A stretch of 64,000 nucleotides of DNA, taken from Candidatus Competibacteraceae bacterium (GTDB taxonomy: Bacteria > Pseudomonadota > Gammaproteobacteria > Competibacterales > Competibacteraceae). The notes beneath the pieces are model-generated. The model was not told the origin of the DNA and did no database searches. It saw only the letters and a list, made by a program, of their open reading frames with translations. A program made the translations under genes and the position numbers. The stretch covers positions 1,037,105 to 1,101,104 of the forward strand of contig JADJPA010000001.1 in NCBI GenBank assembly GCA_016713505.1, given 5' to 3'. This document shows positions 27,520-61,943 of this stretch, in pieces; the first letter of the stretch is position 1; each line of letters opens with the position of its first letter.

Positions 27520-27533
27520 TTATACCATCATCT
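27520..27533 (-). repeat. copy c of recurrent intergenic motif (minus strand reads AGATGATGGTATAA)
   Basis: 13/14 identical to copies b and e. Sits in the 40-nt gap between convergent genes (DAHP synthase stop 27497, J-domain gene stop 27538), where no promoter is expected. Confidence 0.65.
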
Positions 27534-28260: not shown

Positions 28261-28275
28261 CGGTTCTTTCAGACC

Positions 28276-29019: not shown

Positions 29020-29045
29020 CGCGCGCCGCCAGTCATCACCGGCTG

Positions 29046-30347: not shown

Positions 30348-30377
30348 GGCGCGGTCTCGGGGTGATAGGAAAAACTG

Positions 30378-31046: not shown

Positions 31047-31059
31047 GGGGGTCTCCGTG

Positions 31060-31806
31060 TCAATAGCCCAGATAAGCCCGGCGCACGTCGTCATCGGCCA
31101 ACAGGTCCACCGCCGGGGCGGTCTTGGCGATGCGGCCGGTTTCGAGGATGTAGCCGCGCCCGGCGATGGCCAGGGCGGCGCGGGCGTTTTGTTCGACCAG
31201 CAAAATGGTGACGCCGCGTTGGTTCAGTTCGACGATCACGCGAAAGATTTCCTCGACCAACAAGGGGGCCAAGCCCATCGATGGTTCGTCCAAGAGCAGC
31301 AGGCGCGGCCGACCCAGCAGGGCGCGACCGATGGCGAGCATTTGCTGCTGGCCGCCGGACAAGGTACCCGCCGGTTGCCGGCGGCGTTCGGCGAGAATCG
31401 GAAACAAGGCGTAGACGCGCTCTTGTTCCTCGCGCAGCCAAGCCGGATCGCGGCGCTGGCGGTAGCCGCCGAGACGAAGGTTGTCCTCGACGGTGAGCGG
31501 GGCGAACACTTGGCGTCCTTCCAGCACCTGACACACGCCGGCGGTGACGATCCGATGCGGCGGCCAGCGGGTGATATCTCGGCCGTCAAACCGTATCCGT
31601 CCGGCGCTGGCGGGTTGCAAGCCGGACAAGGCGTGCAGCAGAGTGGTCTTGCCCGCGCCGTTGCCGCCGACGAGAGCGACCAACTCGCCCGCGCCGACGC
31701 ATAAATCTATCTGGTGGACGGCGCGCACCGGGCCGTAATGGCTGCTCAGTCCGATGACCTCCAGCAAAGAGCCGGCGGCGGGCGCGGCGGCCACTTCAGA
31801 CGGCAT
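31060..31806 (-). CDS. livF: branched-chain amino acid ABC transporter ATP-binding protein
   Basis: Walker A GGNGAGKTT, signature LSGGQQQML and Walker B LLLLDEPS. LivF-type length and position. Confidence 0.85.
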   Translation of the reverse strand: MPSEVAAAPAAGSLLEVIGLSSHYGPVRAVHQIDLCVGAGELVALVGGNGAGKTTLLHALSGLQPASAGRIRFDGRDITRWPPHRIVTAGVCQVLEGRQVFAPLTVEDNLRLGGYRQRRDPAWLREEQERVYALFPILAERRRQPAGTLSGGQQQMLAIGRALLGRPRLLLLDEPSMGLAPLLVEEIFRVIVELNQRGVTILLVEQNARAALAIAGRGYILETGRIAKTAPAVDLLADDDVRRAYLGY

Positions 31807-32599
31807 AGCTGACCGCTCCGCCCAGATAAGCAGCGACCACGCGCGGATCGGCTTGGATTTCCGGCGGCGTCCCTTCGGCCAGCACGCTGCCGTAATCGAG
31901 CACCAGCAGCCGGTCGGAGACGCCCATCACCAACGGCATGTGGTGTTCGACCAACAGCACGGTGACGCCGCTGGCGCGGATGCGGGCGATCAAATCGCGC
32001 AGCGCCCAGGATTCCGTGTCGTTGAGTCCGGCGGCGGGCTCGTCGAGCAACAGCAGACGCGGTTTGGCGGCGAGGGCGCGAGCGATTTCAACCCGCTTCA
32101 TGAGGCCGTAGGGCAAGGCGCTGGCGGCTTGACCGGCGCGGTCGGCCAGCTCGCACAGTTCCAGGGCTTCGATGGCCCACTCCCGCAAGCGTCGCTCCTG
32201 ACGCCGCATTCCCGGCAAGCGCAGGGCGGCGGCGAACAGGCTGGCGCGGGCGCGCAAATGACAGCCGACCATGACGTTTTCCACCACGGTCATGTTGAAA
32301 AACAACTGTAAATTTTGAAAAGTCCGGGCGACGCCGCAGGCGGCGATGCGGTGCGGCGACAACCCCAACAACTCGCGGCCAGCGAAGCGGATCGAGCCGG
32401 CGGAAGGTTGATAAAAGCCGCACAGCGCGTTGAACAAGGTGGTTTTACCCGCGCCGTTGGGACCGATCACCGCATAGATCAACCCTTCCAGCACCTGAAA
32501 ACTGACGCCCGCCAGCGCCATGACGCCGCCGAAACTTTGCTCCAAACCCGCGACCGCGAGCAACGGTAAGGCGGGAGCGGGCGGCGGCAGCGCGGTCAT
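31796..32599 (-). CDS. livG: branched-chain amino acid ABC transporter ATP-binding protein
   Basis: Frame 31796..33112 trimmed to ATG 32599 (MTALPPPAPALPLLAVAGLEQSFGGVMAL...). Walker A GPNGAGKTT and Walker B LLLLDEPAAG. The upstream extension is antisense-like and Arg-rich. Confidence 0.85.
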   Translation of the reverse strand: MTALPPPAPALPLLAVAGLEQSFGGVMALAGVSFQVLEGLIYAVIGPNGAGKTTLFNALCGFYQPSAGSIRFAGRELLGLSPHRIAACGVARTFQNLQLFFNMTVVENVMVGCHLRARASLFAAALRLPGMRRQERRLREWAIEALELCELADRAGQAASALPYGLMKRVEIARALAAKPRLLLLDEPAAGLNDTESWALRDLIARIRASGVTVLLVEHHMPLVMGVSDRLLVLDYGSVLAEGTPPEIQADPRVVAAYLGGAVSYAV

Positions 32600-32610
32600 G
32601 AACGATACGA

Positions 32611-33576
32611 TCAGGCGACCGGCGAGGGCTGGGAACGAATCAAGACGGCGCCGACCCGACGCGCCGCTTGGCTCAAACCCACGAACAGGCCCTGCGGCAT
32701 GAAGATCATCACCGCCATCAACAGCGCGCCGTGGACCAGCATCTCGTAATCCTCGAACACGACCAAGCCTTGCTGGAGCAAGGTCAAGGCGATCGCGCCG
32801 CAGACCGCGCCGAAGGTGGAGGCCAGACCGCCCAACACCACCATGGTGACCAGTTCGACCGAGACGGTGAGGTCGAACGAATCGGGGCTGACAAACGCTT
32901 GTTGGTGGGCGAACAGACTCCCGGCAAAAGCGGCGAACAGGGCGGAAATCACGAATGCCTGGGTTTTGGCGCGGGCGGTATCGACGCCCATCATCTGGGC
33001 GGCGAATTCCGAACCGTGCACCGCCCGCAAGGCGCGGCCGACTTGGGAATCGACCAGATTGAGCGACAGCCAAACCGCCAGCAGCATGGCGGCCGCGATC
33101 ACGCCATACCACTGCCGATCACCTTCGACTTTCCAACCGAGCAGGTTCAAGGGCGGAATCCCGGACAGACCGTCGGGGCCGCCGGTCCAGTGCGTGGCTT
33201 GCACCATAACGACGTGCACGATGACGCCGAAACCGAGGGTCGCCATCGCCAAATAATGGCCGCGCAACCTTAAAATCGGGCGGGCGAACGCCCAAGCGAG
33301 CAGGCCGGCCGCCACCAAACCGGCGGTGAGCGCCAGCAGCGAGGGCCAGCCGAAACGGGTGGTGAGCACGGCGGACGCATACGCGCCCACGCCGAAAAAC
33401 GCGGCGTGGCCGAGGGAAATCTGGCCGGCGTAACCCATCAACAGATTGAGGCCGACCGCCAAAATCACATGCAATCCGGCGGACGCGCCGACCACGACGA
33501 CGAAATAGTTATCGGGGAAAAGGACGGGAAGCGCCGCCACGGCCGCCGCGAACGCATAGAAACCGGCCAGCCGCAT
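32611..33576 (-). CDS. livM: branched-chain amino acid ABC transporter permease
   Basis: 321-aa polytopic membrane ORF with a LivM-type block (GYAGQISLGHAAFFGVGAY). Confidence 0.85.
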   Translation of the reverse strand: MRLAGFYAFAAAVAALPVLFPDNYFVVVVGASAGLHVILAVGLNLLMGYAGQISLGHAAFFGVGAYASAVLTTRFGWPSLLALTAGLVAAGLLAWAFARPILRLRGHYLAMATLGFGVIVHVVMVQATHWTGGPDGLSGIPPLNLLGWKVEGDRQWYGVIAAAMLLAVWLSLNLVDSQVGRALRAVHGSEFAAQMMGVDTARAKTQAFVISALFAAFAGSLFAHQQAFVSPDSFDLTVSVELVTMVVLGGLASTFGAVCGAIALTLLQQGLVVFEDYEMLVHGALLMAVMIFMPQGLFVGLSQAARRVGAVLIRSQPSPVA

Positions 33577-33579
33577 CGC

Positions 33580-34455
33580 TCACACCCGTTCCGAGACTTT
33601 GTGGCCGAACAGCCCGGTCGGCTCGAAAAACAGCACCATCAGGACGAACAGAAAGGCGATGGCGTCCTTGTAGCCGGATGACACCAAACCGGCTCCGAGG
33701 GATTCCAGCACCCCCAACAGCAACCCGCCGGCGACCGCGCCCATCGGGTTACCGATGCCGCCGACGATGGCGGCGGAGAAGCCTTTAAGGCCGAGCATGA
33801 CACCGGCTTCGTAAGAGCTGAAGGTGATGGGCGCGATCAGGATGCCAGCCAGCGCGCCCAAGCCGGCGGAGAGGCCGTAGGCCAAGCGCAGCATCACCTT
33901 GACGTTGATGCCGACCGCCTGCGCGGCAGAGCGGTTGAAGGCGCAGGCGAGCAGCGCCTTGCCCAGCAGCGTGCGGTTGAAAAAAGCCCGCACCAACGCC
34001 ACCAGCACGATCGTGACGCCGAGCACCCACACGCTTTGCGGCAGCAGGGTGGCCCCGCCCAACCGGATCGGATCGTCGCCGCTGAACGGCGGCAGGGAAT
34101 GAAAATCCTTGCCCCAGAGCAGCAGGGCGACGCCGCGCAGGAAAATCGCCGCGCCGATGGTGATGATGATGGTGGTGACGACCGACGCGCCCGCCGCCGG
34201 CTCGACGGCGAAGCGCTCCAACAGCACGCCGACGCCGACGGTGAGCGCGGTGGCGACGAAAGCGGCCAACAGCAGCGGAAGTCCGGCGCTCAACAAGGCG
34301 ATGGCGATCATCGCCCCCAGCATCACAAACTCGCCCTGGGCGAAGTTGACGACATCGGAGGCGTTATAGATCAGGGCAAAGCCTAACCCCACCAAGGCGT
34401 ACAACGAGCCGACCGTGATTCCGGCGACCAGGAATTGGAAGACCTGTTCGGGCAT
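33580..34455 (-). CDS. livH: branched-chain amino acid ABC transporter permease
   Basis: 291-aa polytopic membrane ORF with a LivH-type N-terminus (QFLVAGITVGSLYALVGLGFALIYNASDVVNFAQGEF). Confidence 0.85.
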   Translation of the reverse strand: MPEQVFQFLVAGITVGSLYALVGLGFALIYNASDVVNFAQGEFVMLGAMIAIALLSAGLPLLLAAFVATALTVGVGVLLERFAVEPAAGASVVTTIIITIGAAIFLRGVALLLWGKDFHSLPPFSGDDPIRLGGATLLPQSVWVLGVTIVLVALVRAFFNRTLLGKALLACAFNRSAAQAVGINVKVMLRLAYGLSAGLGALAGILIAPITFSSYEAGVMLGLKGFSAAIVGGIGNPMGAVAGGLLLGVLESLGAGLVSSGYKDAIAFLFVLMVLFFEPTGLFGHKVSERV

Positions 34456-34464
34456 GAGCGGCGC

Positions 34465-35601
34465 TTATTCGATCATTTTCCAAGCGCCGTTGCGGACTTC
34501 CACCAATTTGAAGGCGTCCAGATTCAGGCCCATGTGATCTTGCGGACTCATGTTAAACACGCCGGCCGTACCGATGAAACCCTTGGTTTTCTCGATCTCA
34601 TCGCGGACCTTGGCCTTGTCGGTTCCACCCGCCCGCTCGATGGCTGACACGGCGATCATCAGACCGTCGTAGGCGTGGCCGCCGAAGGTGGACACCGGGC
34701 CGTGTTTGGCTTCGTATTGGTTTTTATACGCCAGCAACACCGGTTTTTGAGGGTCGGCGTCCGGCAATTGCTCGGCGGCGACCAGCGCCGCCGCCGGCAG
34801 GCGCGCGCCTTCGGCCGCATCGCCGGCCAGATCGATGAAGGTCTTGGACGCGACGCCATGCGATTGATAGAGCGGGAGATTGATCCCCAGTTGCTTGATG
34901 TTCTTGGTGACGATGGCCGGGGCTTGGCCCAGGCCGAAGTTGATGATCGCCTCGGCACCCGACGCCCGAATCTTGGTTAATTGGGCGGTCATGTCGGTGT
35001 CTTTGTTGCCGTAGGATTCGTCGGCGACCAAGGTCATGCCGTAATCGGGCGCCAGCTTGAGAATTTGCGCGCGGCCGGATTTGTCAAAACCGCCGTCGCC
35101 GGTGATCAGCGCGATTTTGGTGAGACCGCGCTTGCGCAAGTCCTCAAAGATTTTGGCGGCCGCCATGCGGTCGGAGTGGGGCATTTTGAAGACCCATTTC
35201 TTGACCGGTTCGACGATTTCCACCGCGCCGGCCAGCGAAATGAAGGGAATGCCTTCTTTTTCCACATCGGGGATGACGGCCATGGTGTCGCCGGTGGTGG
35301 TGCCGCCGATAAGCAAATCCACGTTGTCGCTTTTAATCAGCCGCTTGACGAAGTTGACCGCGTCCTTGGCGTTGCCGCTGGTATCGTAATGGATTAGTTC
35401 GATCGGGCGACCCTTGACGCCGCCCTTGGCGTTGATGTGCTCGACATACATCTGCAAGGTCTTCAGTTCGGGATCGCCGAGGAATGAAGCCGGTCCGGTC
35501 ACGGTCAAGAAAGAGCCGATCTTGATGGGATCGGCGGCGCGCGCGGGGTTGAAAACGGTCAAAAATAGAATTGTTCCTAGAATCGTTTTCCAATGAATCA
35601 T
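34465..35601 (-). CDS. ABC transporter substrate-binding protein (LivK/LivJ-like, type I periplasmic binding fold)
   Basis: Trimmed to ATG 35601 (MIHWKTILGTILFLTVFNPARA, signal peptide) preceded by GGGGAGA. Leu/Ile/Val-binding-protein-like blocks. Confidence 0.85.
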   Translation of the reverse strand: MIHWKTILGTILFLTVFNPARAADPIKIGSFLTVTGPASFLGDPELKTLQMYVEHINAKGGVKGRPIELIHYDTSGNAKDAVNFVKRLIKSDNVDLLIGGTTTGDTMAVIPDVEKEGIPFISLAGAVEIVEPVKKWVFKMPHSDRMAAAKIFEDLRKRGLTKIALITGDGGFDKSGRAQILKLAPDYGMTLVADESYGNKDTDMTAQLTKIRASGAEAIINFGLGQAPAIVTKNIKQLGINLPLYQSHGVASKTFIDLAGDAAEGARLPAAALVAAEQLPDADPQKPVLLAYKNQYEAKHGPVSTFGGHAYDGLMIAVSAIERAGGTDKAKVRDEIEKTKGFIGTAGVFNMSPQDHMGLNLDAFKLVEVRNGAWKMIE

Positions 35602-35679
35602 CTTTGATCTCCCCTCAATGGTGCGGCGCGCGCGGTTTTTACCGAGGCTGGCCACATCGATTTTTTTTGATTTGAGACT

Positions 35680-36303
35680 TCAAGCCGTCGGATGCTCGGA
35701 AAGAGACTTGATATGGCCCGCTTCCCGGCCGGCGTCGAAGGCGCGGGCGTTGATGTCCGCCAGTTTGGGTTTATAAGCTCGAAAACCTTCGACGATGTTG
35801 GTTTTAAGCACTTCGGCTGGGAAGGGCAGATGGTCGCTGATCGCGCCGAGCATGATGGTGTTCACCAACTTGGCGTTGCCCAATTCCTCGGCGATGGCCC
35901 CGGCGTCGAAGGCGTGGACCTCGATGCCGGTCGCGGTCAGATCGCCGATGGGATCGGCGGGGTACTCGTAGAGGCCAGCCGATACGACCGGCGGCGCGAT
36001 CCGCAAGGTGTTGACCATGGCCACGCCGGTGGCGCGCAAATGCGGCAGCCAGCGCAAGGCTTCGGCGGCTTCAAAGCCGATCAGCAGATCCGCCTCGCCG
36101 GCGTTGATTTGCGGCGAATAGACCTTGGAACCGAAGCGGACGTGCGAGGAGACCACGCCGCCGCGCTGGGCCATGCCGGCCACTTCGGTCTTTTTTACGT
36201 CGTAACCTTGGTTCAAGGCGGTGCGGGCCAGCATTTCGGCGGCGGTCATGACGCCCTGGCCGCCGATGCCCACCACGAGGATGTTGGTGATGCCGTCAGG
36301 CAT
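35680..36303 (-). CDS. iorB: indolepyruvate:ferredoxin oxidoreductase subunit beta
   Basis: 207 aa with an IorB-type N-terminus (NILVVGIGGQGVMTAAEMLARTAL...EVAGMAQRGGVVSSHVRFG). Overlaps the iorA 3' end by 8 nt. Confidence 0.85.
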   Translation of the reverse strand: MPDGITNILVVGIGGQGVMTAAEMLARTALNQGYDVKKTEVAGMAQRGGVVSSHVRFGSKVYSPQINAGEADLLIGFEAAEALRWLPHLRATGVAMVNTLRIAPPVVSAGLYEYPADPIGDLTATGIEVHAFDAGAIAEELGNAKLVNTIMLGAISDHLPFPAEVLKTNIVEGFRAYKPKLADINARAFDAGREAGHIKSLSEHPTA

Positions 36304-38164
36304 GAGCGTGAATCCGAATGACGCGGTTTTGCGGTTCCGGTTGGACGATGGCGTCCGGCGCGCAGGTTTCGACGCACATGTGACAGCCGGTGCAGGTGTT
36401 GGGGTCGATGCGGGCGAACACCAGCTCCTTGGTCTTGCCGCTCTTGGCGGTCACGGTTTCGCGGCGGGCGACCGAAATGGCCGGACAGCCTAGGTCGATG
36501 CAGTTGCCGCAGCCGGTGCATTGGTCGTCCAGCACCGTGTAGGCCCGCAAGCGCTCGAAGCGGTCGGTGAGCGAACAAGGGCGGTTGGTGATGATGACCG
36601 AGGGTTCCGCCATCTTGGTTTCTTCCCGCACCAGCTTGACCATGGTCGGCAGTTCGTAAGGATCGACCAGGCGGATGCGTTCGGGGCGGACGCCCAGCGC
36701 CTCGGCCAGTTTGGCGAAATCGACCCGCGGGGCGGGCAGGCCGTGCAAGTCCTGGCCGGTGCCAGGGTTTTCCTGACCGCCGGTCATGCCGACCGAACGG
36801 TTGTCCAGCAGCAACACGGTGACGTTGCCCCGGTTGTAGATCATGTTGAGGAGGCCCTGCATCCCCATGTGCAAGAAGGTGGAATCGCCGATGACCGCGA
36901 CGATGCTTTTCTTGTCGTCGGATTCGCCGCGCCCCTTATCCATGCCGTGGGCCATGCTGAGCGACGCGCCCATGCTGATGCAGGTGTCCAGCGCGTTCCA
37001 GGGATGACCCGCGCCGAGGGTGTAACAGCCGATGTCGCCGATGATGTTGAGGTTGCGGATGTGGGAGAGGGCGAAGTAGGGGCCGAGGTGAGGGCACGAG
37101 GCGCACATGGTCGGGGGGCGCGGGAACAGATCGGTCCCGGAGCGGGCGGCCACCTCATGCGGTTCGCCGAGAAAGGCCTTGATGGCGGGGCGCAACACGC
37201 CCGGCGCGAGTTCGCCGAAGCGCGGCAAGATATTTTTGCCGTGAACCTCCAGGCCGGCGGCGCGGATTTCGGTTTCCAGCAGCGGTTCGGTTTCCTCGAC
37301 CACGACCAACGTATCGACTTGGGACGCGAAGGCGCGGATCTTGTCGAGGGGGGCGGGGTGGCTGAAGCCTAGCTTGAGCACTGGGGCGTTCGGGAAGGTC
37401 TCGCGGACGTGCATGAAGGCGGGGCCGGAGGTGATGAATCCGATCCGCCGGTCGCCGCCGGTTGAGGCGATGTTCAAATCGCTGTGCTCGCTCGCTGCGC
37501 GCAGCGAGCGGTCGCGCTGGTGCATCAGCGGCAGGCGCGGCTTGGCGTTAGCTGGGGTCATCACCCAGCGTTGGGGATTTTTTTGAAAGCCGGGGACTTG
37601 ACGCGCGATGCGCTCGCCCTCGACCACGACCATGGCCTTGACGTGGCAGACGCGGGTGGTCATGCGGACGATGACCGGGGTTTCGTGCGCCTCGGAGAGA
37701 TCGAAGGCGCGCTTGACCATCTCGTAGGCTTCCTGGGAGTCGGCCGGCTCCAGAATCGGCATGTGGCCGAAGCGGCCCCAGTAGCGGGAATCTTGTTCGT
37801 TTTGCGAGGAGGAGAGGCCGACATCGTCGGCGACCACGATCACCAGACCGCCGACCACGCCGGCCAGCGATTGGGTCATGAAGGCGTCGGAGGCGACGTT
37901 CATGCCGACGTGCTTCATCGCCGCCAAGGCGCGCGATCCGGCCAGCGACGCGCCGATGGCGACTTCCACCGCCACTTTTTCATTGACCGACCATTCGGAA
38001 TATACATCGGGATACAAGGCGATGTTTTCCAGAATTTCGGTGGCGGGGGTGCCGGGGTAGGCGGCGGCGACGCGGACGCCGGCTTCCCAGGCGGCGCGGG
38101 CGACCGCTTCGTTGCCGGATAAAAGGTGGCGGCTTTCAGCCTTGGCGTGAACCACGGCGTTCAT
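36296..38164 (-). CDS. iorA: indolepyruvate:ferredoxin oxidoreductase subunit alpha
   Basis: Frame 36296..38293 trimmed to ATG 38164 (MNAVVHAKAESRHLLSGNEAVARAAWEAG...). TPP-binding region GDSTFLHMG and two 4Fe-4S Cys clusters (CTGCGNCIDLGCP; CTGCHMCVETCAP). Confidence 0.85.
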   Translation of the reverse strand: MNAVVHAKAESRHLLSGNEAVARAAWEAGVRVAAAYPGTPATEILENIALYPDVYSEWSVNEKVAVEVAIGASLAGSRALAAMKHVGMNVASDAFMTQSLAGVVGGLVIVVADDVGLSSSQNEQDSRYWGRFGHMPILEPADSQEAYEMVKRAFDLSEAHETPVIVRMTTRVCHVKAMVVVEGERIARQVPGFQKNPQRWVMTPANAKPRLPLMHQRDRSLRAASEHSDLNIASTGGDRRIGFITSGPAFMHVRETFPNAPVLKLGFSHPAPLDKIRAFASQVDTLVVVEETEPLLETEIRAAGLEVHGKNILPRFGELAPGVLRPAIKAFLGEPHEVAARSGTDLFPRPPTMCASCPHLGPYFALSHIRNLNIIGDIGCYTLGAGHPWNALDTCISMGASLSMAHGMDKGRGESDDKKSIVAVIGDSTFLHMGMQGLLNMIYNRGNVTVLLLDNRSVGMTGGQENPGTGQDLHGLPAPRVDFAKLAEALGVRPERIRLVDPYELPTMVKLVREETKMAEPSVIITNRPCSLTDRFERLRAYTVLDDQCTGCGNCIDLGCPAISVARRETVTAKSGKTKELVFARIDPNTCTGCHMCVETCAPDAIVQPEPQNRVIRIHAHA

Positions 38165-38309
38165 GGTGGGTGTTGACCTCGCTGGTTCCAATCGACACCT
38201 TGGGGCCAGGGCGGGTCCGACGCCGGACCCCGCACCAAAGCGGTTTTCCCAAGGCAATTTAATGAAATTAATGGTAGCAGCTATCCACACCACCTGACAG
38301 GTTTTGCGG

Positions 38310-39365
38310 TTAGGGTTGGGATTTGCGAGTCGATTTCGCGGATCGGGATTTAGGGGGTTTTGTTAAAGCGGGAGAGGCTGCGGCAGACGGCGATTGCGGT
38401 TGCCACCGATCTCGGTCGGCGCGCATCGCCTTGAGTTCACCACGCAGCGCTTCAAGCTCGCGCACCGTTTCGAGATGTTGGATTTCCGAGCTTTCACGGA
38501 GGGTTTGCAGTTTTTGCAGCTCCGCCGCTAGATGGGTTTGGCGCTCCTGAGCGGTCGCTAGATCAGCCTTGAGTTCGGCGGTTTCGGCGCGTTGGTTTTC
38601 TTGTTGGGCACGCCATGCGGATTCGAGGCGAGTCCACTCTTGGCGCTCGCTGGCGAAGCGTTCTCGTTCGGTATTTTGTTCGGCGCGCAGTTGGTCGATC
38701 AGACCGAGCCAACGGGATTCGCTGGCTTCGTTACGCCGTTGTTCCGTTTCCAAATCTTGTTGGGCTTGATGCCGTTGGTGTTCCAAATCAGTTCGGGTTT
38801 GTTGGAGCGCGGTTTCAAGCTGGGCGACGCGAGCGGCGGTTTCGGCGCGGAGTTGATCGGCGGTTTGCGCGGCGGATCGGGCGCGCGCCTCGGCGGCTTG
38901 AATCGCGGTTTCGGCGTTGGCGCGGCGCTCTTGTTCCACTAACAGGCGGTCGGCGAGATCGCGGGCGGCCGTTTGGGTCGTTTCAAGCTGGCGGCGCAGT
39001 TGGTCGATCTCGCTTTGGATTTCGCGGCATTGGTTGAGGGTGGCCTCGCGGGCTTGCTCGGCGGCGGCGGCGGTTTGGGCCGCGATTGCGCGTTGGTCCT
39101 CGAACGCCGATTCGGCGTGTTGCACGGCGATTTTCCAGAACGCATCCAAGGCGAGCGCGACGGCTTCGGGAACGCTCGGCGGCAAAACGATTTTGGGCGT
39201 TTCCGCAAGCTGCTGTTGCCAGATTTTCAGATGCTCGCTGATGGTGGTGTTGCTGCCGGTGCCGAGCGCTTCGCGAACGCGCTGGATGGTGGGATTAAGG
39301 CCGCGTCCGAGTAAGGATTCGGCGGCGTCGCGAACATTTTCAAACGTAATTCCAGTGCGGGCCAT
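38310..39365 (-). CDS. KfrA-like DNA-binding protein with a long coiled-coil tail
   Basis: The N-terminal 60 aa (ITFENVRDAAESLLGRGLNPTIQRVREALGTGSNTTISEHLKIW) match my recollection of the KfrA_N plasmid-type DNA-binding domain. The remaining 290 aa or so are Q/E/R/A-rich heptad-like coiled coil. Confidence 0.6.
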   Translation of the reverse strand: MARTGITFENVRDAAESLLGRGLNPTIQRVREALGTGSNTTISEHLKIWQQQLAETPKIVLPPSVPEAVALALDAFWKIAVQHAESAFEDQRAIAAQTAAAAEQAREATLNQCREIQSEIDQLRRQLETTQTAARDLADRLLVEQERRANAETAIQAAEARARSAAQTADQLRAETAARVAQLETALQQTRTDLEHQRHQAQQDLETEQRRNEASESRWLGLIDQLRAEQNTERERFASERQEWTRLESAWRAQQENQRAETAELKADLATAQERQTHLAAELQKLQTLRESSEIQHLETVRELEALRGELKAMRADRDRWQPQSPSAAASPALTKPPKSRSAKSTRKSQP

Positions 39366-39428
39366 GATTTTGAGGGTATCCCTGATTATTGAGAGTTGAG
39401 TCGATTCTATAATAATAAATGATTACAT

Positions 39429-39438
39429 AATACGTATT
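39429..39438. promoter_or_regulatory. perfect 10-bp palindrome AATACGTATT in the AT-rich promoter region of the KfrA-like gene (candidate auto-operator)
   Basis: Palindrome read directly, 64-73 nt upstream of ATG 39365 in a 120-nt AT-rich tract with several TATAAT-like hexamers. RK2 KfrA is known to autoregulate via an operator in its own promoter. Confidence 0.25.
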
Positions 39439-39487
39439 TATGCTGATCTTTCACTTATGAAATTCAAGATTATTCTTATAATCATGA

Positions 39488-39877
39488 ATTATACTTTCGC
39501 CTCAAAAGCGCTTTGAACTCGCTGGTTGGCTGGCCAAAAGCGTTGCCCGTCCGCCAGATCGCGGATTTTGGCTGGAACAAGCGATTTTTCAAACGCTGCA
39601 AGCGTGGCGCGCGCTCGACTCGCTCAATCGCTGCCTCTATTTCTGGCGGGACCGTTCCAGGCGGGAAATCGATTTTGTGCTGGAGAAAAACGGCGTGCTG
39701 GTCGGCTTGGAAATCAAGGCGTCTTCTCAGGTCACGCCGGCGGACGCCTCCGGCATCCGAGCGTTTCAAGACGCTTTGAGAACGGGTTCATCGTTTCGGC
39801 GCGGCGCGATCCTCAACAGCGGCGCGGTGCGTCTGATCGCTGAAAACATCCATGCCTTACCTTGGGGCTGGATGCTG
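39488..39877 (+). pseudogene. 5'-truncated remnant of a DUF4143-type AAA+ ATPase gene
   Basis: Open frame with no start codon, translating ...GFWLEQAIFQTLQAWRALDSLNRCLYFWRDRSRREIDFVLEKNGVLVGLEIKASSQVTPADASGIRAFQDAL...IHALPWGWML. This is the C-terminal DUF4143/restriction-endonuclease-like part of such ATPases. The whole AAA+ N-terminal half is absent, and the frame then runs on antisense into the next gene. Confidence 0.5.
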
Positions 39878-39910
39878 CCCATAACGCCTTCAAGGCGGTT
39901 TTCCGCAATC

Positions 39911-42544
39911 CTATTCCGCCGCCGCGCCCGGCGTATCCAGATAAAAAAATACGTTCTGTTTCATTGTATTGGCATTGAAGCGCAACATCGCCCGATACTG
40001 ATCGCTCGGCAGGTCGATCACCCGCACGCACTCGGCCCATGGCGCGGCGTTCGGCAACAACTCCGCCAGCCGGTTGGCTTGCTGGTCGAAAAACGCCCTG
40101 TTGATTCGGTTATCCTGCCGCTGCGGGAACACCGCCAGATACAGGATGTCGGTTTCGACCAGATCGCTGAAGAAATGGGTGCCTAGCGACACATCCGGCA
40201 CCAAGCCCTCGTGCATCGCCACCAGCTCGCACAGCACCGCCGCGTTGTTGATTTCCGCGAAGCGCACCGGCACGCCCAGCTCGGGCGAGGCCGTACCCCA
40301 GCGGCCCGGACCGATCAACAGCAGCGACTTAGCCGCATCTGGCCCGCGCAAGCGGGTGATCTGGCCGATTACGCGGGCGATCTGGTGACGTTCGTTCAAC
40401 GGCAATTGGCTGTAAACCGCCGGGACCACATAAACCAAACGGTCGATGGTGCCGATCCGGCTGTGACCGATCACCGCACCGTGCGCCTCCAGCACCAGCC
40501 GCTCCGGCGCGATGCGCTCCGGCGGGTTCGCAATGGTGCCCGCCTCCTTCACCTGAAACGGCCGACATTGCACCAAATCGATCTTGTAACGCCCGCCGTC
40601 GATGAAATTGGCCGTGAACTCGACATCCACCGGATAATCGTACGCCTGCTGCAAGATGCGCAACATCTCGCGCATGTCATTCACGAACGGCGTGTTTCGC
40701 AGCAAGTGCTCGAAGGTCAACACCCACGGAAACACCTCCTGCATCCCTCGCTCGCGCGCCCGCTGTTCCAACTCGTCGTCCACCGTCGCCACCATTTGCA
40801 ACGGCAAATCCGGGCTCTGTTGCGCCACGTCGGCGAACTGGCGGGTGGAAAGTTGGTTCGCTTCCAGATCCAGCACGTCGATCCGCTTCTGGGCGTACTG
40901 GCGCACGCTGTCGAAATGGCTTTCCGGCCGGCGTTCGGGATCGCTCAGCGACACCACCCGCGTATAGTCATCGTCCGACCGATCCACCGCCCGCGTCCCC
41001 AAACCCATGACGAGTCGCACCATCCCCGCCGCCGGGTCGATATGCTCGCTCCATACATAAGGATTGAACGACAGTCCGACTCCGGCCATGTGCGGATAAA
41101 ACAAATTGCCGTGCTGCGCGCCGGACACCCGCTGCACCAGCAAACCCATTTGTTCGTCGCGGTCTAAAATCCCCCGCCGCACCCGGTACATCAGCGCTCG
41201 CTCGCTCATGGTGCTGGCGTAGATGGTGCGCACCGCCGTCAGCAAGTCGTCCAGCCGCTTCTCGCGCGGCCCCTGATTGACGCAAAACACACTGTCGTAC
41301 TTGCCGGCGAAGGCGTTGCCGAAATTGTCCTCCAGCAAGCTGCTGGAGCGGACGATGATCGGCGATTGACCGAAGTAATCCAGCATATCGGAAAACTGCT
41401 GCATCACGTAATCTGGGAAATCGCCGCGCAAGATGCGCCGCCGCGCCGTTTCCGCCCCATCGAGAAACGTGGCCGGATTTTTCTGCTTGTCTCGCACCCA
41501 CCAGCAGCCGTTGCGCACGAGATAGCTGTAAAACACATCCGAGCCGACAAAAAAAGAATCGTGGATTTCCAGCAGCTCGCGCCAGCGCGGCTCGGTCCGT
41601 TGCAGAATGGCCCGCGCCAGCATCACCCCGACCGCTTTACCGCCGATCAGGCCCGTGCCGATCATCCGTTCCCTGATCGCCAAAATATCGCCCAGAGTCA
41701 GATAGCGCTCCGCCAGTTGCATCACCCGCTCGTCGCGCGACACCGTCATCCGCAACGTCCGCTGCAACAGGTCGCGATCCAAATCCTTCACCGGCACATT
41801 CGCGTGTCCGGCGGCCACCACCTCCTCGACTTCTGAAAACGTGCGATTCCAGATGTCGAGTCGAGGATCGTTCGCCTTCAAGCCCGACCAGGGAAACAGC
41901 GTCAAAATTTGAGAAATGGTCACGCTGTCCGTAACCGGCGCGAACTCCTCGCCGCGCCACACGTGTAACAGGTGCATGGTCGGCGAATAGCGTTGCTGGA
42001 CCTTGAGCGGACGGACGTACAATTCGCCCTGATGCCGGTAAATATCGCTGAACAACTGGGTGGTATCGAGAATCGGCGCGGTGGCGTGAAAGGAATGATG
42101 GCCGCGCATCAGCGCGAAATAGGCGATCGTTTCTAGGTCGTACAGATAAGGGCAGGTCAGCATGAAAAAATTGCCCAGCATCTGATCGCTGTACCAGTCG
42201 GCCACCAGATCGGACAAACAATCGAATACGTAATACGCGCCGCGCCCGGACTGTTCGATGGTGGTGTGGATCGCGCTCAGGAACGGCTCGAAGCCCTCGC
42301 CGGGGTCCAGCACTTGAATGTCCACGCCCGGACCTTCCGCCACCAACGCTGGATGGCGGGCGAAGTGGAAATAGACCAGCTTGCGGCCTCTGTCGCGGGC
42401 GTACTGGCAAAAAGGTTCCACCAGTGGCCGGTAATCGTCGATGCTGTCTGCCTGCCAGACGATATTGTCGCCCGCCATGATACCCCGGAAAACCCGGTCC
42501 AGACCGGCCAGCCCGGTGCTGACTTGTGCGTCAATTGCCGCCAT
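39911..42544 (-). CDS. PEP/pyruvate-binding (PPDK_N-type ATP-grasp) domain protein with a P-loop-less RecA/KaiC-like N-terminal domain
   Basis: Trimmed to ATG 42544 (MAAIDAQVSTGLAGLDRVF...) preceded by AGGGGAGAGGG. The N-terminus is laid out like KaiC/Rad55 (GLAGLD...VYFHF...VFDCLSDL) but lacks a GxxxxGKT loop. The central part carries PPDK_N-like blocks (GTGLIGGKAVGVMLA; IIVRSSSLLEDNFGNAFAGKYDS). Confidence 0.75.
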   Translation of the reverse strand: MAAIDAQVSTGLAGLDRVFRGIMAGDNIVWQADSIDDYRPLVEPFCQYARDRGRKLVYFHFARHPALVAEGPGVDIQVLDPGEGFEPFLSAIHTTIEQSGRGAYYVFDCLSDLVADWYSDQMLGNFFMLTCPYLYDLETIAYFALMRGHHSFHATAPILDTTQLFSDIYRHQGELYVRPLKVQQRYSPTMHLLHVWRGEEFAPVTDSVTISQILTLFPWSGLKANDPRLDIWNRTFSEVEEVVAAGHANVPVKDLDRDLLQRTLRMTVSRDERVMQLAERYLTLGDILAIRERMIGTGLIGGKAVGVMLARAILQRTEPRWRELLEIHDSFFVGSDVFYSYLVRNGCWWVRDKQKNPATFLDGAETARRRILRGDFPDYVMQQFSDMLDYFGQSPIIVRSSSLLEDNFGNAFAGKYDSVFCVNQGPREKRLDDLLTAVRTIYASTMSERALMYRVRRGILDRDEQMGLLVQRVSGAQHGNLFYPHMAGVGLSFNPYVWSEHIDPAAGMVRLVMGLGTRAVDRSDDDYTRVVSLSDPERRPESHFDSVRQYAQKRIDVLDLEANQLSTRQFADVAQQSPDLPLQMVATVDDELEQRARERGMQEVFPWVLTFEHLLRNTPFVNDMREMLRILQQAYDYPVDVEFTANFIDGGRYKIDLVQCRPFQVKEAGTIANPPERIAPERLVLEAHGAVIGHSRIGTIDRLVYVVPAVYSQLPLNERHQIARVIGQITRLRGPDAAKSLLLIGPGRWGTASPELGVPVRFAEINNAAVLCELVAMHEGLVPDVSLGTHFFSDLVETDILYLAVFPQRQDNRINRAFFDQQANRLAELLPNAAPWAECVRVIDLPSDQYRAMLRFNANTMKQNVFFYLDTPGAAAE

Positions 42545-42725: not shown

Positions 42726-43892
42726 ATGACGATGATCCCCATTCCCCCCGCAACCCTGGCTTCACCCTTGCCGCTGGAGCGGCTGCGGGTGCCGGAAACG
42801 CTGGACGGCCGCGCCGGCGCCAACCGGGCCGGACCCGATGTGATCTGTCAGCTAGCCGCCAGTAACGATCTGGAAGCCGTGCGCGCCTGGCTCGCCGAAT
42901 TCCACGACTCACCGCAAACCCTGCGCAACTACCGCAAGGAAGCCGAGCGCCTGCTGCTCTGGGCGTTACTGGAGCGCGACAAAGCCCTCTCCAGCCTCAC
43001 CCGCGAGGATTGCCTGCTCTACGAAGCTTTTCTTGCCGACCCACAACCTCGCGAACGCTGGTGCGGGCAAAAAGCACCCCGCTTCAGCCCGCGCTGGCGA
43101 CCGTTTCTCGGCGCGCTCAATCCCGCCAGCCGCAAGGTCGCCATGCTGATCATCAACTCGTTGTTCAGCTATCTGGTCAAGGCCGGTTATCTGGCGGGCA
43201 ATCCGTTGGCGCTCGCGCGCCGCCGCGCGCGCGGCCAACAGTCCGCGCGACAGGTGGAGCGCTTTCTCGAACACGATCAATGGCAAGTCTTGCTGGCCAC
43301 GGTGGACGAACTGCCTCGCGATGAGGAACGCGACCGCCAGCACCACGCCCGCGCCAAATATCTGCTCGCCTTGCTCTACCTGCTCGGTCCCCGGGTCAGC
43401 GAAGTCGCCAATCATGCCATGAGCAGCTTCATGCAGATTCGCGGGCGCTGGTGGTGGCGCGTGATCGGCAAAGGCCGCAAGGAAGCCCAGGTGCCGGTCA
43501 ATCAGGACATGCTGCAAGCGCTGCGCGACTACCGTCGCTTTTACGGTCTCTCCCCCTTGCCCGCCCCGGACGATGCCACCCCGCTGGTGTTGAACCTCAA
43601 GGGCACCGGCGGTATCGGCGACAACATGATTTATCGGATCGTCAAGGAATTAGTGGCCAAGGCGGCGGCGCGACTGGAAGCGGAAGACCCTTATCAGGCT
43701 GAAAAACTGCGCCGCGCTTCCACCCACTGGTTCCGCCACACCAGCATCACCCATCAGGCCGACGCCGGCATCGACATTCAATTTTTGCAGCGCAACGCCC
43801 GCCACGCCCGCATCGATACCACCGGCCTGTACCTGCACGCCGAAGAAAAGGAATGGCACGAAACCATGGAACGCCATCGCCTCAAGGAATAA
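42726..43892 (+). CDS. tyrosine-type site-specific recombinase/integrase
   Basis: 388 aa with an N-terminal SAM-like core-binding domain (TLRNYRKEAERLLLWAL). Catalytic domain has box I GPRVSEV, box II HWFRHT, RHARIDTT and the nucleophile Tyr in TGLYLH. Confidence 0.85.
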   Translation: MTMIPIPPATLASPLPLERLRVPETLDGRAGANRAGPDVICQLAASNDLEAVRAWLAEFHDSPQTLRNYRKEAERLLLWALLERDKALSSLTREDCLLYEAFLADPQPRERWCGQKAPRFSPRWRPFLGALNPASRKVAMLIINSLFSYLVKAGYLAGNPLALARRRARGQQSARQVERFLEHDQWQVLLATVDELPRDEERDRQHHARAKYLLALLYLLGPRVSEVANHAMSSFMQIRGRWWWRVIGKGRKEAQVPVNQDMLQALRDYRRFYGLSPLPAPDDATPLVLNLKGTGGIGDNMIYRIVKELVAKAAARLEAEDPYQAEKLRRASTHWFRHTSITHQADAGIDIQFLQRNARHARIDTTGLYLHAEEKEWHETMERHRLKE

Positions 43893-43962
43893 ACTTCCAC
43901 AGCTTTAGGCTGGAAATGCCGCTCGGCCGAGCCATGATTCGCAGCGCGAAAAATTTAAGTAA

Positions 43963-45342
<1,380 letters not shown>

Positions 45343-45533
45343 CCCTTTAACAACCCTGCCGTCGCCGGTTCTCCACTCGTTCGGGCCGGCGATGGCCTCG
45401 CGCTGTCGCCTCGTCACACCTCCAGCTTGGCTCATTGTCCCGTGGCGGCGGCTTCGTAAACGGCTTTGAAAACCGGCCCGAACTGCTCCAGCGAACGGTA
45501 TCGGCGCGTCCGGCGCGATGGTATCTGGCTCGC

Positions 45534-45970
45534 ATGGCGGCCTTCGCGGCGGTGGCGGAAGCCGCTTCGTTCACGGCGGCGTCCGACGGTCGCGCGAATG
45601 GCTGGCCCTCAGCGTCCTGCCGAGGCCGTGGACCTTGCCGCTACTGCGAAACGGCAAAACGCTGAATATCCGGATGCAAGGCGCGATCAGCGTTTCCGCC
45701 ACCGTCGCGCTCAAGGAACTCGCGCTGGCCGATGCTGGAATCGCGGCGCTGCCCGAACCGCTGGCGCGGGCCGAATTGGACCTGGGCCGGCTCATCCGGC
45801 TGCTGCCCGCCTACCGGCTGCCCCTGCTGCATTTCCATGCGGTCTATGCCGGCAATTTGGCTCCGCCCGCCAAGACGCGCGCGTTTATCGATTTGGCCAA
45901 GGAACAGATTCGGGATCGGCCTTGGCGGCCGAACTCGCCGCCACGCGGGCGCTCGAATCCTAACGCTTGA
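45534..45970 (+). pseudogene. decayed LysR-family regulator (HTH stub joined out of frame to the C-terminal effector subdomain)
   Basis: Frame 0 reads ..MAAFAAVAEAASFTAAS, the start of a LysR HTH, then degenerates. From about 45590 frame 2 reads WTLPLLRNGKTLNIRMQGAISVSATVALKELALADAGIAALPEPLARAELDLGRLIRLLPAYRLPLLHFHAVYAGNLAPPAKTRAFIDLAKEQI, a typical LysR C-terminus. About 150 codons are missing in between. Confidence 0.55.
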
Positions 45971-46121
45971 GCCGTACGGAAATACGGCCCAACGGTTGCG
46001 CGAACTGTCATGGGATCAGTACTATGTCAAGTTGCAGTTTCGTAAAATTTAATACGGACCTTTTCATCAGGTTCCGTCCGGGAAAGGATGCCGCGTCAGC
46101 CGCTGTTATCGAGGAATTGCC

Positions 46122-50774
<4,653 letters not shown>

Positions 50775-50779
50775 ACGTT

Positions 50780-52216
50780 ATGGGCAAACCGACGGGTTTT
50801 CTGGAAATCGTCCGCCGCGAGCACGGTTATGCGCCGGTCGCCGAGCGGGTCACCCACTTTCGCGACTTCATCGCGCCCTTGCCGGAATCGGGTGTTAGCG
50901 AACAGGCCGCGCGCTGCATGGATTGTGGCATCCCCTACTGCCATCGCGGCTGTCCGGTCCACAACATCATCCCCGACTGGAACGATCTGGTGTATCGCGG
51001 CAACTGGCGGCAGGCGTTGGACGTTTTGCACTCCACCAACAATTTCCCCGAATTTACCGGCCGGATTTGTCCGGCGCCGTGCGAAGCCTCCTGCACCCTC
51101 AACTTCAACGATCATCCGGTGACCATCAAGGACATCGAATGCGCCATCATCGACAAGGGCTGGGCGGAAGGCTGGGTCCAGCCCCAGATCGCCTCGCACA
51201 GGAGCGGCAAGCGGGTCGCGGTGATCGGCTCCGGTCCCGCCGGCTTGGCCTGCGCCCAGCAACTGGCGCGAGCCGGACACGCCGTGGTGGTCTTCGAAAA
51301 GAACGACCGCATCGGCGGCCTGCTCCGTTACGGCATTCCCGACTTCAAGCTGGAAACGTGGTTGATCGACCGCCGGCTGGCGCAACTGCGGGCCGAAGGC
51401 GTGGAATTTCGTCCCAACAGTCACGTCGGCGCTGAGATTCCAGCCCGCGCCCTGCTGGCTGAATTTGACGCCCTGGTGCTTTCCGGCGGCGCGGAGCACC
51501 CGCGCGATCTGAGCGGGCCGGGGCGCGAACTGCGCGGCATCCATTTCGCCATGGATTTTCTGAGCCAGCAGAACCGCCGGGTGGCGGGCGCAAAAATAGC
51601 CGGCGAGGATATTTTGGCGACCGACAAGGCGGTGGTGGTCATCGGTGGCGGCGACACCGGCTCCGACTGCGTCGGCACCTCGATCCGTCAGGGCGCGGGT
51701 TCGGTGACCCAGTTAGAGATCATGCCCAAGCCGCCGCTGCACGAAAACAAGCTGCTGACCTGGCCGGATTGGCCGTTGAAACTGCGGACCTCCTCATCCC
51801 ACGAGGAAGGCTGCGAGCGCGACTGGGCAGTTGCCACCAAACAGTTTCTCGGCCAGGACGGCCAAGTGACAGCGATCCAAATCGTGCGGCTGGAATGGAA
51901 GGAGCAAAATGGCCGGCAGGTCATGGTCGAGGTGCCAGACAGCGCATTTGAGCTCAAGGCCGATCTGGTGTTGCTGGCGATGGGCTTCATCCATCCGATC
52001 CAGGAAGGGATGCTGAAGGAGCTGGGCGTAGCTCTGGACGACCGAGGCAACGTCGCCGCCGGCACCGACGAATATCAGACCTCGGTCAACAAAATCTTTG
52101 CCGCCGGCGACATGCGCCGAGGCCAATCGCTGGTGGTCTGGGCCATTCGCGAGGGCCGGCAATGCGCCCGCGCCGTGGATGAATACCTGATGGGAAGTTC
52201 CGAGCTGCCGCTTTGA
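50780..52216 (+). CDS. gltD: glutamate synthase (NADPH) small subunit
   Basis: 478 aa with Fe-S Cys clusters ([10 protein letters not shown]; CPAPCEASC) and FAD/NADPH folds ([12 protein letters not shown]; [13 protein letters not shown]). Starts 5 nt after the gltB stop. Confidence 0.95.
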
Positions 52217-60786: not shown

Positions 60787-60817
60787 GGTTTGGATGGTTT
60801 TTTGGTTATATAAAAGG

Positions 60818-60831
60818 TGATGATATAATAA
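60818..60831 (+). repeat. copy d of recurrent intergenic motif (TGATGATATAATAA); perfect extended -10 (TGATATAAT) 27-40 nt upstream of the Tus-like ORF
   Basis: Read directly. 13 nt are identical to copy a (reverse complement). 14/15 identical to copy e. Confidence 0.75.
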
Positions 60832-60857
60832 GAGGTGACGCAGTGGAGGAAACCAGC

Positions 60858-61760
60858 ATGCCCGCACCCGCTCCATCGATGGTCCTACTGAGGACCGAAT
60901 TACTGGCCGCTTACGATAGCTTGCTCGGACATCTGGACGAATGTTGCGCTCGCATCCGTCGCGACGCGACGCTGGCCGCCTGGGTGTCGCGCACCGAAGC
61001 CGAGATGCAAGAAGCCGCTGACATGCGCTTCAAGGCGATCCAGCTCTATCGCGCGCTTTGGTACGAAGAGGCGCGAGATGGCCGGGAAACCCTCACCTGC
61101 CCCGGCATCGTCGGCGCCGGCCAGGAAACGCTCCTGTCCGCCTCTGCTTGTAATGCCGCCAAGGATCGCTTCAAGGCGGCGGTATTGGCCCTCAAGTCCC
61201 TGGCGCGACCTGAAATCCAGGCGGCCATGACCGATCTGCACCGCCGTCAGGAAGCACTGGCGGACGCCATGCGCCGCATGGGAACCGCCCGCTTGAACCT
61301 CAAACAAGCCTACCGGCATATTCCGCTGCTCGATCAGCGTCCCCTAAAGATTGGCTTTACCTGGTCCAAGCAAGGGCGGGTGATCCAGCGCACCAGCCAG
61401 GCCACGGCTCGCCGATTGCTGGAACAACGGGTCGAGACGCCGCAAATCATCTTGGAATTACAACGGCTTGCCCAACTTGGCGGCGATGAGATACTGGCGC
61501 GGGTTCGCAGCGTTTGCCCTCACCTGCGCGCCAATCTCGTCTTTGCGGCCGAGAGCGGGTCAGGCGTGCGCCGCCGCCTCATGCAAGCGCCACTGCCGAT
61601 CTTGATACCGTTGCAACCCGGCCAAACGCTGCCTGAGTTCGTACCGGTGGCCCCCGAACCGCCGCTCACCCCTCGACTCCGACGGGCCGATGTGCGCATC
61701 GAGGATGAACCCTTGCTTCCGTCGGTGCGTGTCCATCGCTATCGCGCCCCTTATCGCTGA
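60858..61760 (+). CDS. hypothetical protein, candidate divergent Tus-like DNA replication terminus site-binding protein
   Basis: Frame 60783..61760 trimmed to ATG 60858 (GGAGGA 7 nt upstream), giving 300 aa. Colinear blocks resemble my recollection of E. coli Tus (309 aa): [86 protein letters not shown]/RLHLY. The CDS itself is likely real; the family assignment is unverified. Confidence 0.45.
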   Translation: [300 protein letters not shown]

Positions 61761-61778
61761 GCGGGTCGGTAGCGAGCT

Positions 61779-61796
61779 GAAGATGATGATATAATA
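61779..61796 (+). repeat. copy e of recurrent intergenic motif (GAAGATGATGATATAATA); perfect extended -10, about 150 nt upstream of glgX
   Basis: Read directly. The 16-mer 61779..61794 is the exact reverse complement of 24866..24881. Lies 19 nt after the stop of the Tus-like ORF. Confidence 0.75.
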
Positions 61797-61943
61797 CTCG
61801 GAAAGCTCGCCAAGGTATTTTTATTAGATTGAATTTAATCATAAAAATCTAAATCACTTTTCAGGCGCGGTTTTCTCGATTGGCGCGCGCTATAGTTTGA
61901 AGTCGCTCTATTCCAAAAAAACCGTTCATCAGGAACCCAGAAA

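Follow-up and report, generated by a model that had tools for sequence, protein, structure and literature searches.

In a stretch of 64,000 nucleotides from the chromosome of a Candidatus Competibacteraceae bacterium (contig JADJPA010000001.1; this whole stretch is called the window below), a gene that resembles tus, the gene of the Escherichia coli terminus-binding protein, is bracketed by two copies of an AT-rich repeat. A first-pass annotation, made from the letters of the window, had pointed out both the gene and the repeats. We asked what these repeats are: do they serve the protein that is encoded between them, as Ter sites serve Tus, or are they simply promoters? From a comparison of the locus with its relatives we came to the view that the two flanking repeats belong, on its right-hand side, to a set of sites with the consensus AGATGATGATATAAnA and are most likely cognate Ter-type sites of the Tus-like protein in a compact fork trap.

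Repeats around the tus-like gene

The gene order at this locus is glgB, the gene of a CysB-like LysR regulator, the tus-like gene and the gene of a glgX-type debranching enzyme. A string search of the window finds the exact 13-mer TGATGATATAATA on the + strand at 60818-60830 and at 61784-61796, and the extended 15-mers, aaaaGGTGATGATATAATAagagg at 60816-60830 and ctgaaGATGATGATATAATActcgg at 61782-61796, are identical at 14 of 15 positions. Between the first copy and the ATG (60858) there are 27 nt, and 24 nt lie between the end of the stop codon (61760) and the second copy. The two copies had been described in the first-pass annotation, and positions, strand, spacings and the 14 of 15 agreement were identical when we read them again from the window. 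Its naming of the gene behind the second copy as glgX also agrees with the product, which has CBM_48 and alpha-amylase domains and is glgX-like.

The repeat is not limited to these two copies. When as many as two mismatches are allowed, the window has 6 occurrences of the 13-mer, compared to 0.09 expected from dinucleotide shuffles, and therefore the two flanking repeats are part of a larger family. Similarly, the 11-mer core of the repeat with at most one mismatch is found 4 times, with 0.24 expected. A scan with a position weight matrix (PWM) for the 16-bp motif described below yields exactly five strong sites, which we call L3, L2, L1, R1 and R2 in the order of their positions (Table 1). 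R1 and R2 are the flanking repeats, and the other three, which are absent from the first-pass annotation, lie on the opposite strand.

The encoded protein

In direct searches, the protein encoded in the window gave no match in Pfam (none to the family Ter, PF05472, at E<=0.1), no match in NCBIfam and no sequence match in PDB; a match to PF05472/IPR008865 at the curated threshold was likewise not obtained. Its close homologues all come from Candidatus Competibacteraceae, and they are mostly named "hypothetical" and in a few cases "DNA replication terminus site-binding protein". An exhaustive phmmer search returned relatives in 721 clusters at 50% identity (E<=0.001), and 45 diverse phmmer relatives were used to build a family profile. 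The top PDB match of this profile is E. coli Tus (1ECR, E=5.8e-4). Individually, 27 of the 45 relatives match PF05472, with a best E of 1.5e-10; since the window protein itself does not, its link to this Pfam family is a transitive one. An hhalign comparison of the family with E. coli Tus gave a probability of 93.6% over 231 columns.

The structure leads to the same protein. We searched PDB with Foldseek, using an AlphaFold2 model of the Tus-like protein (predicted local distance difference test, pLDDT, 89; predicted template modelling score, pTM, 0.83), and only Tus was matched, in four entries, with E from 2e-13 to 9e-13, a probability of 1.00 and template modelling (TM) scores of 0.55-0.63 over the full length, while the next match had E=0.06. 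In the structure-based alignment the identity to E. coli Tus is 14-16%. The family-invariant GFTWS aligns with the F-x-W-[AS] strand of E. coli Tus (F170-G-W-A173), which is a DNA-contact strand. We conclude that the protein adopts the Tus fold and that the gene was rightly called Tus-like in the first-pass annotation. Because the family profile, hhalign and the combination of AlphaFold2 and Foldseek all match Tus, we take the open reading frame to encode a true but very distant protein of the Tus superfamily, as judged from profiles and a predicted model.

The motif in other Competibacteraceae

To see how far the repeats are conserved, we compared 68 species-representative Competibacteraceae loci, which were gathered with an alignment of 11 close tus-like sequences, and two more; individual loci are given L-numbers below. 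The site tallies refer to 69 species-level loci and the motif to 154 aligned sites. The tus-like gene is found in 68 species-level genomes and is chromosomal. The order glgB-LysR-tus-glgX is common to the window and to L001 and L004, the two loci with gene calls.

In 51 of 71 cases the core GATGRTATAA, with at most one mismatch, stands 5' of the tus-like gene, and in 49 of 70 it stands 3' of the gene. The full 16-bp site stands directly 5' of the gene in 51 of the 69 loci, always on the strand of the gene, and directly 3' in 48 of the 69, where a downstream site was counted if it lay no more than 160 nt from the stop codon (in several loci it overlaps the stop codon). The consensus AGATGATGATATAAnA, that is A-G-A-T-G-A-T-G-A/G-T-A-T-A-A-n-A, has 16 positions, is asymmetric, contains no dyad and has uninformative flanks. 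PWM scores are bimodal over 1.27 Mb, with the strong sites clearly apart from the background. Five strong copies in 64 kb is the picture of a system with few, asymmetric sites of about 16-23 bp.

The three left-hand sites are conserved as well. L1 is found at the same position and on the same strand in L077, L079 and L080, L2 in L077, L078, L079 and L080, and L3 in L077 and L078. In L077, which is a second species, all three stand at the same intergenic positions in spite of an inserted gene. On the right-hand side, the closest relative that was fetched (L005) has a third site about 7.3 kb beyond the tus-like gene. The third right-hand site is located between convergent genes of a DJC28-domain protein (+) and a DUF2058 protein (-). 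If the arrangement is as in L005, the third right-hand site of the window genome would be located past the end of the window. Motif, positions and polarity are conserved across species.

A metagenome scan for AGATGATGATATAAAA returned mostly chance matches in AT-rich contigs; among the matches listed there was one Competibacteraceae contig (L110), with the known arrangement.

Two other explanations for the motif were considered and rejected: a repetitive extragenic palindromic (REP) or mobile element, because the flanks of the motif are not conserved, and an RNA element, because the strand of the sites has no consistent relation to the flanking transcripts.

Polarity of the sites and position of the terminus

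When the tus-like gene is taken as +, all 102 of 102 vicinal sites are + and so are 43 of 43 sites further 3', while 9 of 10 sites further 5' are -. In the window, three - sites (23.3, 24.9 and 27.5 kb) and two + sites (60.8 and 61.8 kb) enclose 33 kb. We wanted to know what lies between these two groups. The GC skew of the window is positive over its first 39.5 kb or so and negative in the rest. Its sign is independent of the gene strand, which argues that the skew reflects replication and not transcription, and the change from positive to negative therefore places the terminus at about 39.5 kb.

The same picture is seen in other species. In L066 and L070 a distance of only 3-5 kb separates the - from the + sites, and it is between the innermost opposed sites that the skew changes sign. 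For two pairs of loci from the same contig (L078/L034 and L079/L019) the serS side is - and the tus side is +, with the clusters 39 and 45 kb apart. L051 and L062 each have a canonical dif site (CGCATAATGTATATTATGTTAAAT, 24 bases with 0-1 mismatch) on the 5' side of the gene, at a distance of 7-8 kb. Furthermore, the FtsK-orienting octamer KOPS (GGGNAGGG) occurs 21 times on the + and 85 times on the - strand 3' of the gene in the 69 loci, a bias that exceeds that of control octamers, and left of the skew switch of the window it is distributed 5:0 in favour of the + strand. Since three independent markers, namely GC skew, dif and KOPS, agree, the terminus is placed between the opposed clusters; the locus sits at the chromosome terminus. 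In summary, two groups of opposite polarity around the terminus were found in the window, in L066 and L070 and in the same-contig pairs, and dif and KOPS are in accord with them.

Table 1. Sites, genes and other features of the window (positions counted from its first letter)
Feature	Position	Strand	Remarks
tus-like gene, 300 aa	60858-61760	+	distant Tus superfamily member, as suggested by profile, hhalign and Foldseek
Ter-like site R1, AGGTGATGATATAATA	60815-60830	+	PWM 27.1 of max 31.8; vicinal to tus-like gene (27 nt 5' of ATG); innermost right-hand site
Ter-like site R2, AGATGATGATATAATA	61781-61796	+	PWM 30.7; 21 nt 3' of tus-like stop codon, ~150 nt 5' of glgX
Ter-like site L1, AGATGATGGTATAAGA	27518-27533	-	PWM 27.6; innermost left-hand site; 40-bp convergent gap between DAHP synthase gene (aroG, +) and DnaJ-domain gene (-)
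Ter-like site L2, AGATGATGATATAAAA	24864-24879	-	PWM 31.8 (maximum); between thiolase gene (+) and serS (+), antisense to both
Ter-like site L3, AAAAGATGATATAATA	23291-23306	-	PWM 27.0; divergent gap between 524-aa gene of unknown function (-) and thiolase gene (+)
GC-skew sign change, positive to negative (cumulative maximum)	39000-40000		inferred terminus, between L1 and R1
28-bp palindrome, ATTCAAGATTA-TTCTTA-TAATCATGAAT (11-6-11)	39462-39489		dif-like architecture, at GC-skew switch
Xer-related tyrosine recombinase, 388 aa	42726-43892	+	Phage_integrase domain; inside putative trap
KfrA-like protein, 351 aa	38310-39365	-	KfrA_N domain ("plasmid replication region DNA-binding"), long coiled-coil tail; beside skew switch

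Promoters or binding sites

Both R1 and R2 spell TGATATAAT, the textbook string of an extended -10 element, as the first-pass annotation had noted. As a fallback it offered that they may simply be promoters of the tus-like gene and of glgX, of the sigma-70 extended -10 type (TGnTATAAT); the repeat would then be a strong promoter consensus and nothing else. The spacing at some sites suits this explanation: 27 nt separate R1 from the ATG, with a Shine-Dalgarno sequence (GGAGGA) on the 3' side of R1, R2 precedes glgX by about 150 nt, and L3 is found about 180 nt 5' of a co-oriented gene.

Taken as a set, however, the conserved sites do not have the properties of sigma-70 extended -10 promoters. 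The T at position -7 is near-invariant in sigma-70 promoters, whereas at the corresponding position of the 154 sites we count 80 A, 43 G, 29 T and 2 C (T = 19%). The 5' extension AGATGA, on the other hand, is strongly conserved and is explained by no promoter element, and no -35 signal rises above the control in these 154 sites. Three of the six conserved positions (L2, L1 and the third right-hand site) are antisense to their neighbours or lie between convergent genes, so that half of the positions are unfit for driving a co-oriented gene. Even directly upstream of the tus-like gene the spacing is often wrong for a promoter: an automated call places the first in-frame start codon no more than 15 nt after TATAA in about 30 of 52 vicinal upstream sites, the start is often found 10-14 nt after TATAA, and in at least 15 of these sites a Shine-Dalgarno sequence is located between TATAA and the start codon. 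A transcript that started about 7 nt downstream would in such cases lose its ribosome-binding site. Finally, the strand of a site tracks the side of the terminus and not the direction of the genes, and, the inverted clusters apart, about 690 kb of sequence on the 5' side of the gene contain no strong copy. We therefore regard a purely promoter-like function as highly improbable.

Which protein binds, and to what effect

By analogy with E. coli Tus-Ter we infer that the Tus-like protein binds the sites, arrests forks with a non-permissive face and regulates its own gene. A monomer would bind each site in one orientation; a bound site would let forks pass toward the terminus and would block forks that leave it. 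The opposed clusters would in this way hold forks within the 33-kb zone that contains the skew switch. If the binding orientation is conserved along with the fold, the non-permissive face would look toward the terminus, as a trap requires. Because R1 lies directly 5' of the start codon on the coding strand, self-repression would also be possible, with the protein at R1 repressing its own gene.

Potentially, the motif could be bound by another protein, such as the CysB-like LysR regulator, the KfrA-like product of 38310-39365 or some terminus-organising factor, in which case the motif would stand next to the tus-like gene by coincidence. The LysR gene is indeed located immediately 5' of the tus-like gene in most loci, and other DNA-binding proteins are encoded inside the putative trap. 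We consider this unlikely. In L054, L058, L061 and L066 the upstream gene is not LysR and yet the vicinal site is retained; genes found in the place of the LysR gene are SirB, hydrogenase and RES-domain genes. As the site stays with the tus-like gene after a change of neighbour, the LysR protein is an unlikely binder. LysR-type sites are dyad-symmetric (T-N11-A), whereas our motif is asymmetric and has no dyad, and a LysR operator was rejected for this reason. The KfrA-like gene has an upstream palindrome of its own. More generally, a few copies of opposite polarity around the terminus are the signature of a fork barrier and not of a transcription factor regulon, and the genes that adjoin the sites (serS, aroG, thiolase, glgX, DUF2058) are functionally unrelated.

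Another possibility is that the Tus-like protein does bind the sites and is only an autoregulator or a plasmid-derived DNA-binding factor, with no fork arrest and with a polarity that has no trapping function. Several observations would agree with this: the cytosine-lock residues are not demonstrably conserved, related genes are found on megaplasmids beside integrase genes, and some Ter sites of Enterobacterales are probably unused for fork arrest (Toft et al., PMC8707476). Against it stands the number of sites, as one would be enough for autoregulation and there are six here. Five conserved sites are away from the tus promoter, and in several species two strictly opposed clusters bracket the skew switch, which in L066 and L070 falls between the innermost opposed sites. 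To us a function restricted to autoregulation seems improbable, and we prefer the reading of the sites as the Ter sites of a fork trap.

A number of points weigh against this preferred reading. The first concerns the protein. We compared the set of residues that form the cytosine-lock pocket in E. coli (I79, F140, H144 and G149), and found that F140 and H144 fall in a poorly aligned stretch (model residues 124-134, pLDDT <50) with no obvious equivalents; because of the poor alignment and the low model confidence the lock pocket could not be traced. The second concerns the motif. The consensus AGATGATGATATAAnA lacks the GTTGTAAC core of E. coli Ter, and only a loose ATG.T.TAA pattern is common to the motif and the E. 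coli Ter core. Ungapped, the best registers against TerB agree at 7 positions of 13 or at 8 of 16, so that the sites do not conform to the Ter consensus, and the critical GC(6) pair of E. coli Ter has no assignable counterpart in the motif. The likeness of the cores that the first-pass annotation had proposed does hold at 7 of 9 positions, but it is weak and lacks GTTGTAAC; our argument is independent of it. Nor did we find the motif in two distant family members, L073 (40% identity) and the Halomonas plasmids L202 and L203, and so it is not bridged to E. coli Ter. As for the terminus, there is no canonical dif in the window, where the closest match differs from it at 9 of 24 bases, and the picture of few sites confined to the terminus is based on about 1.4 Mb of terminus-proximal sequence. 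Lastly, an extra role as a -10 promoter is possible where the spacing allows it, as with the perfect strings in the window.

Comparison with known termination systems

In E. coli MG1655, TerB (AATAAGTATGTTGTAACTAAAGT) is located on the coding strand of tus and ends 10 nt before the ATG, as we checked in the sequence. In relation to dif, the E. coli tus gene occupies the negative-skew side, and its transcription runs away from dif. In position and strand, a TerB-like vicinal site on the coding strand is present in the 51 of 69 loci counted above. The proposal of a cognate site at the start of the gene, like TerB, thus gains comparative support: the Tus fold, flanking sites in about 50 of 69 loci, their survival when neighbours change, the opposed clusters and the same layout all speak for it.

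This likeness to E. coli Tus-Ter goes beyond a single site. Both have the Tus fold and short, asymmetric sites that are few in number; in both, two clusters of opposite polarity surround the GC-skew switch and dif; and both have the order terminus, site, tus, all reading away from the terminus, where the innermost site in one of the clusters directly precedes the start codon. The differences are equally clear. The protein identity is only about 15%, the window protein stays below the Pfam and NCBIfam thresholds, and the consensus is another one, as described. In Competibacteraceae the gene is bracketed by two tandem sites, a cluster consists of three sites within 4-8 kb, and the trap would be 3-45 kb wide. 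Also, the family is outside the three clades for which a resident tus has been reported (Galli et al. 2019, PMC6549158).

Among tus-bearing Enterobacterales a Ter site vicinal to tus has been reported throughout; in narrow "type I" traps, which have been argued to be ancestral, it is the innermost one (Toft et al. 2021, PMC8707476). As we read it, the arrangement in Competibacteraceae fits such a "type I" trap.

In Bacillus subtilis, opposed polar clusters surround the terminus and the gene of the terminator protein RTP is located beside the innermost sites. With this RTP-Ter system our locus has in common the opposed clusters and the terminator gene that adjoins the innermost sites, whereas RTP is an unrelated winged-helix dimer on bipartite sites and here we have a Tus fold and a single 16-mer.

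According to published surveys, resident tus genes are confined to most Enterobacterales, to chromosome 2 of Pseudoalteromonas and to Aeromonadales, and fork traps would for this reason be rare and recent (Galli et al. 2019, PMC6549158). In the literature that we searched there was no paper linking Competibacter to Tus or to a replication terminus. Judging from the genomes, a fork trap appears to be present in Competibacteraceae, a lineage for which none has been reported before. With a conserved Tus-fold protein on the chromosome of an unrelated family of Gammaproteobacteria, and with polar sites of its own around the terminus in 69 species-level genomes, the distribution of tus would have to be revised. 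If this is true, the 721 clusters of relatives would mean that Tus-type traps are far more widespread than the three recognised clades.

The locus would also provide a Tus-Ter pair from nature whose protein is about 15% identical and whose DNA site is different, and with it a way to test a long-standing question, namely whether the cytosine-flip "mousetrap" lock belongs to the fold in general or to Enterobacterales alone. Traps as narrow as 3-5 kb, seen in some species, would favour the view that the ancestral trap was narrow and had its innermost site next to tus (Toft et al. 2021, PMC8707476). In practical terms, the motif could serve as a marker of the replication terminus in metagenome-assembled genomes of Competibacteraceae, for example in assembly checks and in coverage-based estimates of growth rates in wastewater microbiology.

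Other elements inside the proposed trap and distant relatives

The 28-bp palindrome at the skew switch (Table 1) also occurs between or beside the opposed clusters in other loci (L061:4587, L062:756, L065:5057, L068:3196 and L070:7691). In L065, L068 and L070 it precedes the gene of a tyrosine recombinase of about 390 aa by about 110 bp, and the recombinase of the window is 69% identical to the one next to the palindrome in L070. The best NCBIfam similarities of the recombinase are to XerC, XerD, XerA and XerS, all of them far below the cut-offs. In L062 a canonical dif is located 1.3 kb from the palindrome. Together, the palindrome and the recombinase look like a single-recombinase Xer/dif-like module inside the trap, and the palindrome at 39462-39489 may act with the Xer-related recombinase as a local resolution site.

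A near-palindrome, CATAATACGTATTTATG, is found at 39421-39448, 5' of the KfrA-like gene. It was rejected as a dif site, as it would need a 7-bp spacer and is a poor match to canonical dif. A similar sequence, GTAATACGTATATTAC, stands 5' of a "DNA-binding protein" gene that adjoins the tus-like gene on the Halomonas plasmid NZ_CP011054.1 (L203), and for this reason 39421-39448 is more likely an operator-like palindrome of the KfrA-like gene.

Tus-like homologues with 24-37% identity are found on megaplasmids of Halomonas, Pseudomonas, Marinobacter, Vibrio, Azotobacter, Methylophaga and Thioalkalivibrio (NZ_CP130702.1, L202; NZ_CP011054.1, L203; and 26 others). In one megaplasmid record a site-specific integrase gene is located directly 5' of the tus-like homologue. 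This is a hint that the recombinase-plus-tus module came from a plasmid.

How does our locus compare with the plasmid-borne ("mobile") tus of the R6K or megaplasmid type? The distant homologues on megaplasmids, some of which are annotated as terminus site-binding protein, are a likeness, and the integrase that directly precedes one of them echoes the recombinase-...-tus order of L065, L068 and L070. On the other hand, the Competibacteraceae gene is chromosomal, syntenic and located at the terminus, and the plasmid loci that we examined do not have the motif.

If all of this is put together, we lean towards a joint reading, held with less assurance than the assignment of the repeats: Competibacteraceae would possess a resident trap of the Tus type, highly divergent and with a Ter sequence of its own, AGATGATGATATAAnA. 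This trap would consist of two compact triplets only 3-45 kb apart, one of which brackets the gene with its two innermost sites. It would enclose the Xer-related recombinase, the palindromic dif-like site and the KfrA-like gene, suggesting a terminus module that was domesticated from a megaplasmid.

Some further observations concern the surroundings of these elements. The genes that flank the skew switch (27538-38293 and 42726-52216, gltB and gltD included) are mostly head-on to the fork implied by the skew, that is, - on the left and + on the right, which is unusual for a bacterial chromosome. Between R2 and glgX there is an AT-rich stretch (61815-61870) with the inverted repeat TTAGATT...AATCTAA, which is distinct from the 16-bp motif and could be a regulatory element of glgX or a terminator-like feature.

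In an uncultured gammaproteobacterium (L072:9900-10000), two inverted copies of TTTACATCGTAACTAAA are found about 35 bp apart, 5' of a tus-like gene with 23% identity. These copies contain an E. coli-like Ter core (CGTAACTAAA, compared with TGTAACTAAA), and they could be a vicinal Ter pair of another clade. The same locus contains, at 13570-15200, about 12 tandem copies of a 126-bp unit, probably a coding region for a repeat domain and unrelated to the Ter-like sites.

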